A DNA stretch of 27,463 nt from IMG/VR virus record IMGVR_UViG_2545824714_000008; one strand, written 5' to 3'. The stretch is from a virus. Taxonomy: Duplodnaviria > Heunggongvirae > Uroviricota > Caudoviricetes. How positions within the stretch are numbered: the first letter of the stretch is position 1; each line of letters opens with the position of its first letter. Below are positions 4,958 to 12,938 of the stretch, in pieces. Below the pieces are notes generated by a model that ran no database searches, was not told the origin of the DNA, and saw only the letters and a list, made by a program, of their open reading frames with translations. The position numbers were made by a program, and so were the translations under genes.

Positions 4958-5818
4958 TTACACGTGTTTTTCCAATGTGAAAACTACAGCCCCGGCAGGA
5001 GTAATGTCTGTAATGTTGCATTCAAACTCAGCAGACTTATTTGACAACCTGACTTTTCCACCGGGCAAGCGAATTACATCAAAAACATCAAGAGCGCCGT
5101 CGATATCAATTAACCAGCGACCATTACTTATATTCGAAGCAGAACAGTCGACAAGCCAAGAGGCAGCTACACCGTCAACAAAAATCAATTCCCCTGAGTT
5201 AGAAGGAATCATTGAGGGGTCAGGATGCCACGTTCCTGCATCCTTAAGCTCACCAGATTCAAGACGAGATTTTTTAATAGAAAAACCAGATGTGACATCT
5301 TCCCTGTTAGCTCGCATTTGCCCCTTGCCTGTTGCTAACCATTCCAGTGACGTATCGGTATCAAGAGCGCATGTAACAACAACATCACCAGGGAAAAAAT
5401 CTCGCCTTACCCATGTGCTAATTGTGCCAGAGGAAATGCCGAGCAAATCACCGAGCTCCTTTTGCATGGTAAAGCCATACGCATCAAGAATCCTACGCAA
5501 AACGGTTTTACCACCATTCGTCATAATCTCGTCATAAAGCTCTTTGCCTTTTAACTTGCAACTGGCTCGCTCGTGATTTGCATTTGCAAGTTCTCCATTT
5601 ACAAGCCAATTGATATCAGCTCCCGTGTCAAGACAACACCTAACTATGACATTGCCAGGTATTGCATCACGCTGAACCCAGCCGCTAACGCTGTGTTTAG
5701 CGATACCTAGCAGGTCAGCCAAATCCTTTTGCATCTTGACCCCATAGGCTGACATTAAGCGTTCCAATACGCCGTTCGTTGCACTAACACGCCACTGAAC
5801 ATCAAGCTCAGAACTCAT
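4958..5818 (-). CDS. cI: CI-type prophage repressor with a tandemly duplicated N-terminal DNA-binding domain
   Basis: 286 aa. Two similar ~60-aa segments (LERLMSAYGVKMQKDLADLLGIAKHSVSGWVQRDAIPGNVIVRCCLDTGADINWLVNGE and LRRILDAYGFTMQKELGDLLGISSGTISTWVRRDFFPGDVVVTCALDTDTSLEWLATGK) resemble the 186 CI N-terminal domain. Position is next to int and divergent from the lytic operon. Confidence 0.8.
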   Translation of the reverse strand: MSSELDVQWRVSATNGVLERLMSAYGVKMQKDLADLLGIAKHSVSGWVQRDAIPGNVIVRCCLDTGADINWLVNGELANANHERASCKLKGKELYDEIMTNGGKTVLRRILDAYGFTMQKELGDLLGISSGTISTWVRRDFFPGDVVVTCALDTDTSLEWLATGKGQMRANREDVTSGFSIKKSRLESGELKDAGTWHPDPSMIPSNSGELIFVDGVAASWLVDCSASNISNGRWLIDIDGALDVFDVIRLPGGKVRLSNKSAEFECNITDITPAGAVVFTLEKHV

Positions 5819-7430: not shown

Positions 7431-7658
7431 ATGCGTAATACCGAAATCCGTAGTTTTAACACTGATAGCGATGCGCTGGCCGTATTGCTGACCGATGCAA
7501 AAAAAGAAGAGCGTAAAGACCGCGCGCTCGCTGTTTCCATCCGCCTTGAGGCGCTGGCTATCCATATTACCAGAGAGGGAATGAGCGGCACCGAAGCTGC
7601 CGAACTGCTGCGCCGTGAAGCAACCCGCTTTGAGAATGAATCACAGGAGCTGCACTAA
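7431..7658 (+). CDS. Small hypothetical phage protein
   Basis: 75-aa ORF with GGAG upstream, directly abutting the next gene. Confidence 0.55.
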   Translation: MRNTEIRSFNTDSDALAVLLTDAKKEERKDRALAVSIRLEALAIHITREGMSGTEAAELLRREATRFENESQELH

Positions 7659-7879
7659 TGGCCGACGCAATGGATTTAGCACAACTGCGCGAGCAGGAAG
7701 ACCGCGAACGCCACATCAGCAACGCACGCACCCGTATCGCTGCACCTTCCCGTTTTCTTTGCGAGGAATGTGACGCACCAATCCCGGAAGCTCGCCGCAT
7801 TGCGATTCCGGGCGTGGCTTTTTGCGTAACCTGCCAGCAAATCGCAGAGCTAAAAAACAAACACTATCGGGGGGTATAA
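7658..7879 (+). CDS. TraR/DksA-type C4 zinc-finger protein
   Basis: 73 aa with CEEC...x17...CVTC spacing, immediately upstream of gene A as in P2/186. Confidence 0.75.
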   Translation: MADAMDLAQLREQEDRERHISNARTRIAAPSRFLCEECDAPIPEARRIAIPGVAFCVTCQQIAELKNKHYRGV

Positions 7880-7880
7880 A

Positions 7881-10103
7881 TTGGCTGTTCAATTCGCTTA
7901 TCCGTGGAACGTCCCACGGTCGGCAATCTCCAGCCCATACCTTACTTATGAGCAACAGCATCGCCGCGACCGTATGTTCGCGGCTTTGCTGCATGCAAAA
8001 AAGGGGCTTTCTCTCCAGCCCGACTGCGTGCGGTTAGATGTTTATCGCACTGCTGCGGTGCTGGAACAAAATCAGGGTAGTAAACGAGCCAATGCATTTT
8101 TAATCAGCTTCTGCAAAAAGGCATTGCCGCGTCTTGAACTGGTCGCAAAAAAATACGAATGCGCTGGTATCAACAGCAAGGTATCAACCGCTGTTTTTGG
8201 AAGTCATTTTGATACTCAGCAAATGCAATATCTGTCGTCACGCATGGTTAATATGGTCGCCCGATATAACCGTCTCCCGGACATGTCGCGCGCTGATGTT
8301 GACCTGTTGGCCGCTGATATTGCTAATTTCATTCGTGGTGAACTTGCCAACATTAATGACCACGGATTCGGCGAGCTTAAAACGCTGTACACCTGGTATA
8401 TTCGTGCTGGCTTTATTTCCCTCCAATTCAACGTTATCCCACCACATTGGGAGCGGGTTGAAAAAAAATATGTCGGTGCGGATGAAATCGCACCGGCTAT
8501 CGCCAAAATGTTTAACGATGGGTGGTGGCGCGGTCGTTTGCGCCGTGTAGCAGCTACGTGGCGCGAACACCTGCAAATTGCAGTCGGCAACGTCAGTAAG
8601 AAAAAAAACACTTACGCGAGTAAAAACTGCGTGACTGACTGGCGTGAACAAAAGCGCCGCACTCGTGAATTTCTCAAAGGTCTGGATCTCGAAGACGAAG
8701 ACGGCAACCGTATCAGCCTAATTGAAAAATATGATGGCTCAGTTGCTAACCCTGCGATTCGCCGCTGTGAGCTCATGACCCGCATTCGTGGGTTTGAAAA
8801 CATCTGTAATGAGCTCGGTTATGTCGGTGAGTTTTACACTCTAACCGCGCCGTCAAAATATCACGCCACGACTAAAGCCGGTTACCGTAACAGCAAATGG
8901 AGCGGTGCCAGCCCGGCTGACACGCAAAACTATCTAACCGGTATCTGGGCGCGTATCCGTGCCAAACTACATCGGGAAGATGTCCGTATTTTCGGTATTC
9001 GTGTCGCCGAGCCCCATCACGACGGCACTCCACACTGGCACATGCTGATGTTCATGCTGCCGGAAGATGTTGAATATGTTCGCTCCATCGTCCGTAAATA
9101 CGCATGGAAAGAAGACCGCCACGAACTGAAAAGCGATAAATCCCAAAAAGCACGTTTCCACGCGGAGTCCATTGACCCGGAGAAAGGCAGCGCAACCGGC
9201 TATGTTGCTAAATACATTTCAAAAAATATCGACGGTTATGCTCTCGATGGTGAAACCGATGATGAAAGCGGTGAGCTGCTGAAAGAGACAGCCCCCGCCG
9301 TTTCAGCATGGGCTGCGCGCTGGCACATCCGTCAGTTTCAGTTTATTGGTGGTGCGCCGGTGACGGTTTACCGTGAGTTGCGTCGCCTCGCTGATACCGA
9401 AACCGCGCACGGTCTGAGCGTTGAGTTTGCCGCCGTCCATGATGCCGCCGACGCTGGTGACTGGGCTGGTTATGTTAATGCTCAGGGTGGGCCGTTTGTC
9501 CGTCGCGATGATTTACAGGTGCGCACACTGTATGAACCGCGTACCGAGCTTAATCAGTACGGTGAGGAAACGGTATGTATTAAGGGGGTCTACGATTCCT
9601 CCATAGGTGCAGGAAGCCCGATTTTAACCCGGCTCACTCAGTGGAAGATTGTTCCGAAGCGTGCTGTTGATTTGGCCGTTGACCTTCAGGACGGCAAAGC
9701 CGTCCCTCGGAGTTCTGTCAATAACTGTACGGGAAGCGAAAGCGATCCACCGATACTGGATTTAACAAAACCACTGAGTCGGCGTGAAAGACGAGAATTG
9801 ACCAACCTACTCAGGAAGCAAAAGCCAGCAGCACGGCGAAAATTCATCCACGGAACGGATGAGCAAAACGCAGCTATAGCTAAAACTATCGATGAGATAC
9901 ATCTGACAACCGGCATTAATATCAGCCGGGGCGAAGCCCTGCACCTGATGGCCGGTGGTAAAAGTTGTTTTGATGGTAAATGGCTACGCGGAACGGCCAA
10001 AGGAGAAATATTTTCCGCAGCACCATCGCATGAGGCTAAAGCTCGGAAAATCCTTAATCGTGTTGCGGCGATGGCTGAAGCATCAAAACCAATACATGAG
10101 TAA
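7881..10103 (+). CDS. A: Rolling-circle replication initiation protein (P2 gpA family)
   Basis: 740 aa containing EPHHDGTPHWHMLMF and GYVAKYISKNIDGYALDG, matching P2 A motifs as recalled. TTG start with GGGGGT upstream. Confidence 0.9.
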   Translation: MAVQFAYPWNVPRSAISSPYLTYEQQHRRDRMFAALLHAKKGLSLQPDCVRLDVYRTAAVLEQNQGSKRANAFLISFCKKALPRLELVAKKYECAGINSKVSTAVFGSHFDTQQMQYLSSRMVNMVARYNRLPDMSRADVDLLAADIANFIRGELANINDHGFGELKTLYTWYIRAGFISLQFNVIPPHWERVEKKYVGADEIAPAIAKMFNDGWWRGRLRRVAATWREHLQIAVGNVSKKKNTYASKNCVTDWREQKRRTREFLKGLDLEDEDGNRISLIEKYDGSVANPAIRRCELMTRIRGFENICNELGYVGEFYTLTAPSKYHATTKAGYRNSKWSGASPADTQNYLTGIWARIRAKLHREDVRIFGIRVAEPHHDGTPHWHMLMFMLPEDVEYVRSIVRKYAWKEDRHELKSDKSQKARFHAESIDPEKGSATGYVAKYISKNIDGYALDGETDDESGELLKETAPAVSAWAARWHIRQFQFIGGAPVTVYRELRRLADTETAHGLSVEFAAVHDAADAGDWAGYVNAQGGPFVRRDDLQVRTLYEPRTELNQYGEETVCIKGVYDSSIGAGSPILTRLTQWKIVPKRAVDLAVDLQDGKAVPRSSVNNCTGSESDPPILDLTKPLSRRERRELTNLLRKQKPAARRKFIHGTDEQNAAIAKTIDEIHLTTGINISRGEALHLMAGGKSCFDGKWLRGTAKGEIFSAAPSHEAKARKILNRVAAMAEASKPIHE

Positions 10104-10177
10104 TTCATATCCATATCATGCACATACAGCAATCGCTCTATTCGTTTTTTTTCTTCCCATCTTTTGCCAATACGTGC

Positions 10178-10197
10178 TACTGTATAAATATACAGTA
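10178..10197 (+). promoter_or_regulatory. LexA (SOS) box overlapping a promoter, upstream of a small-ORF operon
   Basis: TACTGTATAAATATACAGTA is a perfect CTGT-N8-ACAG box with an AT-rich spacer, about 20 bp upstream of the ATG at 10217. Confidence 0.8.
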
Positions 10198-10216
10198 ACC
10201 CTGTGGGAGGGATTTC

Positions 10217-10399
10217 ATGGTTGGCGAACATTTCAGCCGAACGCAGCAAAAGTGGGCTTGTGTGCAATTTATTGCCGAGGTATCTCTGATTGCAAACTGC
10301 AAGCCATCAGACTTAAAGCTCGCGCTCACTCTCATTGCAGACCTAGCAAACAGCGAGAATAACGAAACCGAAGATGATAATTTTTATAAGGCTGATTAG
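10217..10399 (+). CDS. Small SOS-regulated protein (candidate Tum-like antirepressor function)
   Basis: 60-aa ORF with GGGAGGG upstream, directly downstream of the LexA box. Confidence 0.55.
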   Translation: MVGEHFSRTQQKWACVQFIAEVSLIANCKPSDLKLALTLIADLANSENNETEDDNFYKAD

Positions 10400-10402
10400 A
10401 TT

Positions 10403-10636
10403 ATGAGAATCAATATCACGTTGGATAAAGAGCAAAAAATTAGTCAGGCAACATTGGATGCACTTGAGGCTGAACTGTACCGCAATCTTCAACCTATTTA
10501 CCCAAAGACTGCTATCCGAATTCGCAAGGGCTCCGCTAATGGCGTTGAACTAAGCGGTTTGAAACTGGACGAAGATAAAAAACGAGTAATGGAAATCATG
10601 CAGCAGGTATGGGAGGACGATAGCTGGCTGCATTAA
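10403..10636 (+). CDS. Small hypothetical phage protein
   Basis: 77-aa ORF, 3 nt after the preceding stop, followed immediately by repeat copy 1. Confidence 0.55.
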   Translation: MRINITLDKEQKISQATLDALEAELYRNLQPIYPKTAIRIRKGSANGVELSGLKLDEDKKRVMEIMQQVWEDDSWLH

Positions 10637-10638
10637 CA

Positions 10639-10707
10639 AACGCCGCCGGTGCTGAAACTTGCTTTCAGTGCTGGCGGGGTTGAACAACTCGCACCGCGAG
10701 GCGCTAG
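10639..10707 (+). repeat. 69-bp structured repeat, copy 1 (imperfect dyad CCGCC..CTGAAA / TTTCAG..GGCGG)
   Basis: About 86% identical to 11044..11112 and starts 2 nt after a stop codon. Confidence 0.7.
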
Positions 10708-10831
10708 TTCTTCCTCTCAAAGTTTCTCGATGTTTTATTGGTTACACACCAGTGATGAATGGGACGTTACCTTAGCGGGTTTTATAGTGGCGCTGTGGCA
10801 GCGCTAAATAAAATTCATTGAGGGCGATAAT

Positions 10832-11041
10832 ATGCATCGACTACCGGGCGAAATTCCGCAGCACAAAACTAAAAGCATCAAACTGATGGCCATCGTTCAT
10901 CGTCTGCAGCAGATAATGGTCAATGAGAATTTGACACCCGCCGAGCTGGTCGGGTGTGCCGAAATAGTCAGGGATAATTACGGCAAGCTGGATAGCATCA
11001 GCAAGCCGACACATTACTCACCGCCACCACGTCGACCATAG
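10832..11041 (+). CDS. Small hypothetical phage protein
   Basis: 69-aa ORF with GAGGG upstream, followed immediately by repeat copy 2. Confidence 0.55.
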   Translation: MHRLPGEIPQHKTKSIKLMAIVHRLQQIMVNENLTPAELVGCAEIVRDNYGKLDSISKPTHYSPPPRRP

Positions 11042-11043
11042 AT

Positions 11044-11112
11044 AACGCCGCCGGAGCTGAAACTCGCTTTCAGGTCTGGCGGGGTTGAACAACGAGCTAC
11101 GCGAGGCGTTAG
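11044..11112 (+). repeat. 69-bp structured repeat, copy 2
   Basis: Same dyad as copy 1 and starts 2 nt after the stop codon. Confidence 0.7.
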
Positions 11113-11174
11113 CCGGTCATAGCGTCGCAAATACTTCAACCGTCTGCTGGTTAAATAATTCGAGGTTTTTGGAC

Positions 11175-11369
11175 ATGCAAAATCCCCTTTCATCGAAAAA
11201 TGACCCGTTTGCCGATTGGGCAAAGAATCTGACTTTAATGGCTTTAAATAACGACCTGAGCTCTCGCGAGGTGGAAAGCTACACCGCAAAAATGGTCGGG
11301 CAGGCCGGTAAAGATGAGCTATCAGTCGTTATCAAACACCTGTTAAATCACATCAGAATGCGCAAATAA
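11175..11369 (+). CDS. Small hypothetical phage protein (ATG 11175; the ORF opens at TTG 11085 inside repeat 2)
   Basis: GAGG about 9 nt before ATG 11175, giving 64 aa. Confidence 0.45.
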   Translation: MQNPLSSKNDPFADWAKNLTLMALNNDLSSREVESYTAKMVGQAGKDELSVVIKHLLNHIRMRK

Positions 11370-11385
11370 GAGGAACTATATAAAT

Positions 11386-11487
11386 ATGTTATCTCTCGTT
11401 TATGAAAATCCGTGGACGACGATTTTTCTGATGATTGTTGCCAGCATGTGCCTCAACAGTGTTATTGGCGCATTGCGCGGCCATTAA
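11386..11487 (+). CDS. 33-aa hydrophobic peptide (MLSLVYENPWTTIFLMIVASMCLNSVIGALRGH)
   Basis: AAGAGGAA about 10 nt upstream of the ATG, one predicted transmembrane-like segment, followed by a strong terminator. Below the 60-aa cutoff of the ORF track. Confidence 0.4.
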   Translation: MLSLVYENPWTTIFLMIVASMCLNSVIGALRGH

Positions 11488-11506
11488 TCGCGACAAAACC
11501 AGACTA

Positions 11507-11535
11507 AAACCGGCACCCTGAATGCCGGTTTTTTT
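11507..11535 (+). terminator. Rho-independent terminator ending the early/SOS operon
   Basis: 9-bp stem AAACCGGCA / TGCCGGTTT with loop CCCTGAA, followed by a T7 run. Confidence 0.8.
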
Positions 11536-11695
11536 ATGCCATTTTTCCGCGAATTTCCCGTTTTTTAGTCGTGCATGCATCAGGTGCATGGTTTTGCATG
11601 CGTCAGTCTTGCCCGTTCTGTCCGTGCGCCGCCAGAGCTAGCGCGGATCCAGAGTTGTCATGCAACTGCATTAAAACCGCCCCATAAAGCGGGCA

Positions 11696-11714
11696 GGCGT
11701 GGCGGGGAAAGCAT
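11696..11714. other. cos site (19-nt cohesive-end sequence of 186/P2 type)
   Basis: GGCGTGGCGGGGAAAGCAT matches the 186 cohesive end as I recall it (P2: GGCGAGGCGGGGAAAGCAC). Lies between the replication and portal sides as expected in a prophage. Confidence 0.7.
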
Positions 11715-11933
11715 TGCGCGCCAGCAGTGATGCGTAATAATAAAAATTATCCTCTGAGCGCGTCGTGATGGCGCTGTCGTGGTCGCTGCTGGTTCGTTGG
11801 TGGTCGAGTGTGTTCGTGCGCGTGAGACGCATCTGATGCGTGATGGTGGTGTGCATGGAAAAGCCACCAGGAGCAGCGGCTTTACAGGAGTGGCAGGATT
11901 CAAACTGCTAATTATGTTTCTACTATGATTAAA

Positions 11934-12938
11934 CTAATTTACATGTATGTAGAGTTCACCGTCGCCAGACCAATCGGGACACTCTAAAACAAGCCCAAAC
12001 TGCTTGAATATTTCATCAATGATTATTGTTATCTCCCGAAAATCACCAAAACCTGTAATGTGCTGGTCATTAAACTTCCCATAAAGATTCTGAAAAGCAA
12101 TGCCTAATTCTGATAATTGATATCTTATCTTTGAGTTGGATAGTGTAAGGGATAGCTTTGGATCGTATTCTTTAATATTGATGTTTAGAGAATGGACATA
12201 ACCCATCGCATAAGCATAAGAGTTGATGATTAGCCTGATACGTTTTTTTACTTCAAGATACATGTCATTCAGAGAAATATTACCGTACTTATAACCCCAG
12301 ATGAGTTTTTCAATCTCGTCAGATACTTCATTTACAACAGTGTCAAGATTCTCTAAAAATAAATCGACAGTTTCTTGAGGGGCAGACCCCGAAGACATGT
12401 AATTAGCGAGATATTCAGACCATGCACGCGTGGCTGAGATAAGAAGCGCGCTACCATACTCGTTGACTGTAAAGTTTTGGGCTAAGCATGTTAGTAAGTT
12501 TTTTTCATGTACGTGCACTAATTCATGGTGAATGCGATGGATGACTGCGAGGTATCCTTCTTCTTTCAGTTTTAAGAAGCTACCATCATTGAAAAGCTCA
12601 ACAAAAAAATCAATCGATAGCACAAGGGTATATTCTTCATATAGCCCATCATTGCCAATTTTTGTTACTAACTGCCCGACGGCTGCGCCCTGTTTGCTAT
12701 TGGTAAATGAACTAGGGGATTTGTGTTGGTAAGAGGATGTTACCTTTTGAAGAGCTTCACTGAAGTTATAGGAAACAATCACGCATTTTAATTTGGAGAT
12801 ATCAAGATTGAGATTCTTTGTTAAAGCTCGGATAGCTTCTAGTGTGAAATTACCGATATTATTTGCTTCTTGCTCAGTAGCGAAACCTTCGAGGGTTATT
12901 TTAAAATCAGTTTCCAAAATATTAATCTCCGCGCCCAT
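11934..12938 (-). CDS. Orphan 334-aa protein in a low-GC insertion between cos and the portal gene (candidate accessory/defence gene)
   Basis: Uninterrupted ORF in AT-rich DNA, co-oriented with portal and terminase. Contains an HHELVH (HExxH-like) stretch and no obvious membrane segments. No Shine-Dalgarno evident. Confidence 0.65.
   Translation of the reverse strand: MGAEINILETDFKITLEGFATEQEANNIGNFTLEAIRALTKNLNLDISKLKCVIVSYNFSEALQKVTSSYQHKSPSSFTNSKQGAAVGQLVTKIGNDGLYEEYTLVLSIDFFVELFNDGSFLKLKEEGYLAVIHRIHHELVHVHEKNLLTCLAQNFTVNEYGSALLISATRAWSEYLANYMSSGSAPQETVDLFLENLDTVVNEVSDEIEKLIWGYKYGNISLNDMYLEVKKRIRLIINSYAYAMGYVHSLNINIKEYDPKLSLTLSNSKIRYQLSELGIAFQNLYGKFNDQHITGFGDFREITIIIDEIFKQFGLVLECPDWSGDGELYIHVN

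Follow-up and report, generated by a model that had tools for sequence, protein, structure and literature searches.

We analyzed a window of 27,463 nucleotides (nt) from the Caudoviricetes record IMGVR_UViG_2545824714_000008 of IMG/VR, with attention to the string of small open reading frames (ORFs) that follows its replication gene and runs from a LexA operator at 10178-10197 to a terminator at 11506-11539. Comparison with annotated phages indicates that this locus is very probably the SOS operon of a PSP3/186-type (Eganvirus) Escherichia coli prophage, in which tumA and tumB would form the induction switch and ORF69 and ORF64-ORF33 would be carried as cargo. The induction module is already known, being annotated in phage PSP3 and having its logic established for phage 186 and relatives, and the operon itself re-identifies the split tum of the PSP3 type. 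The parts of the locus most worth pursuing are a 69-nt junction element, present in two copies between the ORFs, and the small frame ORF33 (11386-11487); neither was reported in the original prediction, which had been made from the letters of the window.

The region is 100% identical in four complete E. coli genomes (strains JKHS016 and N21 show this identity), where the RefSeq features at the matching stretches are one DinI-family protein and three hypotheticals, and the whole stretch is 92-93% identical to the Salmonella phages SW9, SI22, SEN1 and PSP3 (megablast, phage records). The gene in front of the string, gene A (7881-10103, plus strand), encodes P2 gpA, the rolling-circle replication initiator (Pfam Phage_GPA PF05840, E 4.5e-130), in agreement with the original prediction that the string lies downstream of a replication gene. 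The four ORFs of 60, 77, 69 and 64 amino acids (aa) with ribosome-binding sites described in that prediction are all present where it put them, each with a Shine-Dalgarno sequence of the GGAG/GAGG type 5-11 nt upstream (read from the sequence). Its assignment of the string to a 186-type induction module stands for the operator and promoter, which align with LexA-controlled p95 of 186, and for the first two ORFs, which are tumA and tumB of PSP3; it does not extend to ORF69 and ORF64-ORF33, which lie outside the induction module.

LexA operator and the split tum genes

The LexA operator (SOS box), TACTGTATAAATATACAGTA (10178-10197, plus strand), starts 75 nt past the gpA stop codon and is the sole CTGT-N8-ACAG within the 27.5-kb window. 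It had been described as a perfect LexA box: the box is there and both half-sites are perfect, but its centre is not fully symmetric, with one mismatch to the consensus palindrome TACTGTATATATATACAGTA at a central position. No match to the LexA consensus with three or fewer mismatches occurred in any of 100 dinucleotide-preserving shuffles of the window. The operator overlaps the -10 hexamer of a p95-type promoter (10154-10183, plus strand), which was placed by homology with -35 TTCCCA at 10154-10159, an 18-nt spacer and -10 TACTGT at 10178-10183, the latter being the left half of the box. The 120 nt 5' of tumA align with the p95 region of 186, for which record U32222 annotates a -35 TTCACA, a -10 TACTGT and a LexA binding site, with the description "SOS-dependent transcription of SOS operon". 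By this alignment, the LexA-controlled p95 annotated in phage 186 is the homologue of both the box and the promoter.

The same arrangement recurs in relatives. Upstream regions of 68 tum/tumA genes were available from loci that had been fetched for other purposes; in 62 of them CTGT-N8-ACAG lies 16-20 nt ahead of the start codon, with invariant half-sites and with variation confined to the central bases. Such conservation is typical of a working operator. Across the 102 loci with enough sequence past gpA, it is present in 63/65 loci with tum versus 1/37 loci without, and we therefore regard the box as belonging to tum. A second operator within the window was considered at 11362-11387, where 26 nt are 77% identical to 10166-10191; this stretch contains neither CTGT nor ACAG and was judged a chance resemblance. 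Five divergent P2-like prophages (from Serratia, Buttiauxella, Erwiniaceae and Citrobacter; gpA 31-37% identical) carry a second CTGT-N8-ACAG inside the tumB coding sequence, approximately 360 nt past the first, which could be chance or a second operator.

The first gene behind the operator, ORF60 (10217-10399, plus strand), is identical to PSP3 TumA, a reported antirepressor, at 59/60 residues. The original prediction had held that the antirepressor cannot be told from sequence; on the strength of this identity, ORF60 can be named TumA, the predicted antirepressor of the prophage. The PSP3 record (AY135486) describes tumA as "similar to 5' end 186 tum; UV induction of prophage" and tumB as "similar to dinI and 3' end of 186 tum". 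The tum frame is split by a stop codon in PSP3 and Fels-2, and in PSP3 the upstream gene is reported to be the antirepressor and the downstream gene the DinI homologue (Lemire et al. 2011, PMC3121763). TumA further matches phrog_1993 (E 1e-31) and belongs to a family of 208 clusters, some of which bear the name TumA, and the substitutions in tumA among relatives are skewed to the third codon position. When a 23-member TumA alignment was compared with nine 186-type Tum N-termini by hhalign, TumA 16-47 aligned with Tum 14-45 (80.5% probability, E 1.3e-5; 32 columns, two shallow alignments), with the common motif C-x3-D-x2-[IL]ALxLIA[DE][IL]A.

The second gene, tumB (ORF77; 10403-10636, plus strand; 77 aa), encodes a DinI-family protein matching Pfam DinI PF06183 at 84.3 bits (cut-off 24.2; E 7e-24). 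It is 47% identical to residues 71-145 of 186 Tum and, by that identity, is homologous to the C-terminal half of 186 Tum. Because TumB scores 52.3 bits against the NCBIfam equivalog NF007893 (DinI), below the cut-off of 111, it is a DinI-family member and not an equivalog of chromosomal DinI. Codon changes among relatives comprise 219 synonymous versus 9 non-synonymous, the strongest third-position bias of the five ORFs, all of which have substitutions skewed to that position. By these alignments, 186 Tum probably corresponds to TumA and TumB fused; the two are separate genes in PSP3, in Fels-2 and in the window, where tumB starts 3 nt past the tumA stop codon. In Escherichia sp. ESNIH1 (fetched locus 1445-1733) the order is gpA, LexA box, tumA and then directly the 69-nt element, without tumB; at least one lineage can thus dispense with the DinI-like gene.

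The presumed target of TumA is the CI immunity repressor of the PSP3 type (4958-5818, minus strand; 286 aa), which carries Pfam Phage_CI_repr PF07022 in two stretches together with Phage_CI_C PF16452. It is identical to PSP3 CI at 280/286 residues and, since TumA is likewise nearly identical to its PSP3 counterpart, the TumA-CI pair matches the PSP3 pair. Two tandem CI-type helix-turn-helix (HTH) stretches precede the CI C-terminal domain, as they do in PSP3; the CI of 186 has 192 aa and one HTH stretch.

The proposed course of induction follows these homologies. In the lysogen, LexA bound at 10178-10197, over the -10 hexamer, would shut the p95-type promoter, as expected from homology to the annotated 186 site. 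Upon DNA damage, RecA would become active, LexA would cleave itself and the promoter would fire. TumA would bind CI and block its binding to its operators, leading to lytic growth, on the model of PSP3 and 186; the 186 record states for Tum "expression repressed by LexA; inhibits CI DNA binding". In DuoHS, a P2-like prophage of E. coli HS, deletion of tum or a non-cleavable lexA abolishes induction by mitomycin C (PMC12055606). TumB, as a DinI-like protein, would probably tune the RecA filament and the SOS signal, not CI, judging from family membership. With less confidence, the transcript would probably read through both copies of the junction element to 11506-11539, with ORF69, ORF64 and ORF33 as passengers. 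The prophage is accordingly predicted to be inducible by DNA damage, including SOS-triggering antibiotics, and tumA would be the gene whose deletion locks it.

Several observations weigh against this assignment. The antirepressor activity of PSP3 TumA rests on a personal communication (E. Christie, via Bunny et al. 2002) that is quoted in two papers. A BLASTP comparison of TumA with 186 Tum gave no similarity, and the profile match between them spans only 32 columns at 80% probability. The -35 of the p95-type promoter is weak, as it is in 186, and a generic sigma-70 scan did not call this promoter. Two structures of about -37 kcal/mol lie between tumB and ORF64, and read-through past them is assumed. 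Finally, SW9 TumA is 59/60 identical to that of the window, yet SW9 CI is only 70% identical to the window CI. SW9 TumB is 77/77 identical to window TumB (SW9 stretches 1179-2024 and 7441-7860 were compared with the window); between the two CI proteins the first HTH has diverged, while near-identity is kept in the second HTH and over the C-terminal 50 residues. This distribution hints that TumA may contact the conserved parts of CI.

The status of the genes behind tumB was judged from the architecture of related loci. Gene A is the left anchor of a variable A-to-cos region, and the genes past gpA occur in many combinations: Tum-orf97 in 26 loci, ORF69 alone in 19, Tum alone in 12, ORF69-orf97 in 12, TumA-TumB in 10, TumA-TumB-ORF69 in 6, the complete TumA-TumB-ORF69-ORF64-ORF33 in 6, and ORF69-ORF64-ORF33 without tum in 2. 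ORF69 and ORF64-ORF33 occur behind gpA in relatives that have neither tum nor a LexA box, and the ORF69 cassette is known from P2-type phages lacking tum. Given these mosaic architectures and the loci without tum, we regard ORF69 and ORF64-ORF33 as independent cassettes and not as components of the induction switch.

Two known operons illustrate the same combination of constant and exchanged parts. The tumA-tumB genes of PSP3 occupy the same place past gene A, with 92.9% DNA identity over the box, tumA, tumB, the element and ORF69, which is the same gene as PSP3 gp37; unlike the window prophage, whose host is E. coli, PSP3 is a Salmonella phage and carries gp38 (139 aa) past the second element, where the window has ORF64-ORF33. 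The SOS operon of 186 (p95, tum, orf97, t95a, t95b) has a homologous promoter and LexA box, the same t95b/cos end, and the 69-nt element at 93% identity, unannotated, between orf97 and t95b. It differs in that Tum is one 146-aa protein with internal starts, t95a lies past tum, orf97 stands in place of ORF69, and the element is present in one copy.

The extent of LexA control is the point on which a rival account has some weight, although we consider that account rather unlikely: only tumA-tumB would be LexA-controlled, the first element would be a terminator or processing barrier, and ORF69 and ORF64-ORF33 would be expressed from promoters of their own or from the lytic early transcript. It would explain the very stable structures held in the gaps of 195 and 133 nt, it accords with the same cassettes functioning behind gene A in phages without a LexA box, and 186 has a partial terminator, t95a, directly past tum. 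Set against these points are the lack of a U-tract in the 69-nt element and the result of a generic promoter scan, which found no promoter-like site within the gaps. Moreover, the annotation of 186 places the end of the p95 transcript at t95b, past its copy of the element, and for this reason read-through from the LexA promoter to ORF69 and ORF64 appears plausible.

It is exceedingly improbable that the true antirepressor is ORF69 or ORF64, in the style of the Gifsy phages, with TumA doing something else. Both ORFs are found in phages with neither tum nor a LexA box, many tum phages lack both, the LexA box co-occurs with TumA and not with them, and it is TumA that matches PSP3 TumA and, by profile, the N-terminus of 186 Tum. 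What speaks for the idea is that ORF69 and ORF64 are both small helical proteins without known folds, and that a dinI-like gene followed by a small ORF is an order reminiscent of the Gifsy operon (Lemire et al. 2011, PMC3121763). The dinI-antirepressor-irsA operons of Gifsy-1/2/3 described there share with the window a LexA box, a small operon, a DinI homologue and a small antirepressor directed against a non-cleavable repressor; they differ in having dinI first, in belonging to lambdoid phages, and in antirepressors and repressors of unrelated families.

The 69-nt junction element

Past tumB, the SOS operon contains a 69-nt direct repeat at 10639-10707 and 11044-11112, the two copies of which are 87% identical and separate tumB from ORF69 and ORF69 from ORF64. 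A covariance model built solely from other genomes finds exactly two copies in the window, both on the sense strand: copy 1 at 10639-10711 (plus strand; 80.2 bits, E 9e-21) and copy 2 at 11044-11116 (plus strand; 84.3 bits, E 6e-22). The minimum free energy (MFE) is -36.9 kcal/mol for copy 1 (z -3.96; minus strand -28.2) and -37.2 kcal/mol for copy 2 (z -4.59; minus strand -27.8).

The element is a constant feature at the boundaries of otherwise variable sequence. It was found in 66 phage records, all of them P2-like, in at least 120 IMG/VR contigs, and in plasmids only where a P2-like prophage has inserted. In 137/146 copies an ORF stops within a few nt of the 5' edge of the element; the ORFs ending there are ORF69-like (68), orf97-like (35) or TumB (28). 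Mean pairwise identity is 0.85 within the element versus approximately 0.3 in the 80 nt on either side, homology between phages breaks at both edges, and 144 copies fall into 18 upstream and 38 downstream sequence classes.

The predicted fold consists of an 18-bp hairpin I closed by AAC/GUU, an invariant linker, GGUUGAACAAC, and a short hairpin II whose centre is a tandem G-A/A-G or, in a minority, Watson-Crick pairs. A point against a structural reading was that the first sample of the element, from IMG/VR, had been ascertained by a pattern that fixed the 3' arm, and the element was re-sampled for that reason, from one genome per species; the new pattern was fixed at the linker and hairpin II alone, so that hairpin I played no part in the selection. 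The re-sample comprised 30 loci from Citrobacter, Serratia, Pantoea, Mixta, Erwinia, Rosenbergiella and others, with gpA identity as low as 31-37%. In it, changes on both sides were observed in 13/18 hairpin I pairs, a covariation that no shuffle reached, and 92.4% of hairpin I cells were paired versus 40-48% with partners slid. G-U pairs outnumbered A-C pairs by 182:23 and 44:11, and the sense strand folded better in 77/78 and 21/25 sequences. Pairing of the loop of hairpin I (CUYGY) with GCGAG stands at 96.7% in the set of close relatives and falls to 83.9%, without testable covariation, in the diverse set; a loop-to-3' pseudoknot is possible.

Several other interpretations of the structure were considered and set aside. 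We dropped an outer helix, AACGCC/GGCGTT, that would close the element as a whole, in favor of the two AAC...GUU-closed hairpins given by RNAalifold. The element does not qualify as an intrinsic terminator: it has no U-tract, GAACAAC follows hairpin I, a terminator scan made no call, and the p95 transcript of 186 is annotated as passing it. An integron attC site was rejected on alignment inspection, the ends of the element being (A/G)NNAAC and GTTAG plus mostly C/T, compared with R'' RYYYAAC and R' GTTRRRY. By Pfam matches, the window encodes a single integrase, which is a P2-type Int (PF24624 plus PF00589). An att-like site for an Int-type integrase is unlikely, the element having no similarity to the integrase att side or elsewhere in the window.

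Rfam, searched over the whole window, gave no family at gathering thresholds; with E allowed up to 10, the stretch 10100-11750 gave only chance-level matches. We found the element described neither in Rfam nor in annotated records or the searchable literature, and an earlier description in older work is possible.

Candidate roles of the junction element

We tentatively favor, at close to an even chance, a role of the element at the level of messenger RNA (mRNA), as an intercistronic or 3' processing-and-stability structure that would insulate the upstream cassette. Because it is so conserved, the element would also serve as a crossover point for cassette exchange between phages. A further formulation, possible but held with reserve, is that the element represents an undescribed P2-like cis-acting motif, recognized by a conserved host or phage factor, which would bound the cassettes between gene A and cos through either an mRNA signal or a rolling-circle single-stranded DNA (ssDNA) signal. 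Two points count against the mRNA interpretation: the sequence alone fits an RNA structure and a sense-strand ssDNA structure alike, and we know of no trans-factor for the element.

An ssDNA function taken by itself is clearly unlikely. The element would then be a signal for initiation of the lagging strand, similar to a single-strand origin or primosome site, on the strand displaced by gpA, 0.5-1.5 kb downstream of the origin inside gene A. Its strand-specific fold tolerates G-T, it is always oriented as gene A and lies shortly downstream of it, and its 11-nt single-stranded linker and hairpin II form an exact pattern across phages whose gpA proteins are only 31-37% identical, which suggests recognition by a conserved host factor. 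Orientation-dependent signals are used by rolling-circle replication plasmids and phiX174-type phages, a precedent for such a function. The tight abutment of stop codons and the presence of one copy per cassette, however, fit an mRNA or cassette-boundary role better, and if the fork moves leftward the sense strand would never be displaced. A dedicated signal may also be unnecessary, since in P2 replication DnaB and DnaG are loaded by the phage B protein.

The view that the element is a functionless, passive anchor for recombination, through which P2-like phages swap cargo, is very unlikely. It accounts for the halt of homology between phages at both element edges and for the mosaic locus architectures, with 18 upstream and 38 downstream classes in 144 copies, and Rousset et al. 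2022 leave the mechanism of exchange at the hotspot open. It does not predict the compensatory changes in 13/18 pairs, the strand asymmetry of G-U versus A-C pairs, or the replacement of the tandem G-A pairs of hairpin II by Watson-Crick pairs.

Known elements offer partial parallels to the proposed mRNA-level or cassette-boundary role. Like integron attC sites and mRNA stabilizers of the repetitive extragenic palindromic (REP) type, the element is an imperfect palindrome of about 70 nt that lies just past the cassette stop codon, folds strand-specifically and marks a change of sequence; unlike them, it lacks attC core motifs or an Rfam family, and all finds were in P2-like phages, some of them prophages within plasmids. 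Rousset et al. 2022 described an accessory and defence hotspot of P2, from gpA to cos, that occupies the same interval between replicase and portal, with variable cargo near cos; that study catalogues cargo genes, describes no conserved boundary element in the passages searched, and treats the exchange mechanism as speculative. For anti-phage systems this hotspot is a major reservoir. An element standing at exact cassette junctions, across phages with replicases approximately 35% identical, is a testable candidate for a role in cargo exchange; if the cassette-boundary reading is true, it would supply a mechanism for cargo turnover at the hotspot.

Cargo ORFs and flanking features

ORF69 (10832-11041, plus strand; 69 aa) belongs to the PSP3 gp37 family (phrog_11386, E 2e-47), which comprises 184 clusters, and its AlphaFold2 model is a two-helix hairpin with a predicted local distance difference test (pLDDT) score of 76. 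ORF64 (11175-11369, plus strand; 64 aa) matches phrog_2454 over profile positions 1-64 of 64 (E 2e-39; 54 clusters) and is modeled as a three-helix bundle (pLDDT 69); its ATG lies inside a 94-aa ORF with a TTG start, and the 64-aa start fits the family length. Both families are confined to Enterobacteriaceae prophages, with all members unnamed, and Foldseek searches of the two models against PDB gave no significant match. Pfam, NCBIfam, PADLOC and PDB sequence searches of TumA, ORF69, ORF64 and ORF33 added nothing to their PHROG families, which are of unknown function. In the ORF69 family, a core of 55 residues is conserved and is followed by a tail of 10-23 residues that varies strongly; the proteins then close with a conserved PPPRR(P/R) that abuts the element (11021-11041 in the window). 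What is conserved in this end may be the DNA, as a part of the junction, rather than the protein.

ORF33 (11386-11487, plus strand) encodes the hydrophobic 33-aa peptide MLSLVYENPWTTIFLMIVASMCLNSVIGALRGH and is absent from the RefSeq feature lists of the matching stretches. It begins 16 nt past ORF64 with a Shine-Dalgarno sequence of its own and accompanies ORF64 in 22/23 loci. Its frame is open and conserved in relatives, with conservative substitutions and differences of 38/13/51 at the three codon positions. ORF33 may be a small membrane peptide within an SOS-driven transcript. TisB and DinQ, small membrane peptides induced by the SOS response, are toxins, and for that reason a membrane peptide on a probably SOS-driven transcript merits attention.

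The string ends at a bidirectional intrinsic terminator (11506-11539, plus strand), consisting of a hairpin and a T-run (MFE -14.2 kcal/mol, z -3.86). It is the positional homologue of 186 t95b: its flank is shared with the end of the 186 record, in which t95b is the annotated terminator of the p95 transcript. The cos region follows, with its right end at approximately 11696. Between cos and the portal gene lies a 334-aa ORF (11934-12938, minus strand) with 34-40% G+C, compared with approximately 55% in neighbouring phage genes. It matches phrog_11743, of unknown function, with no Pfam, NCBIfam or PADLOC match, and, lying across cos from the string, is a candidate for an accessory or defence function.

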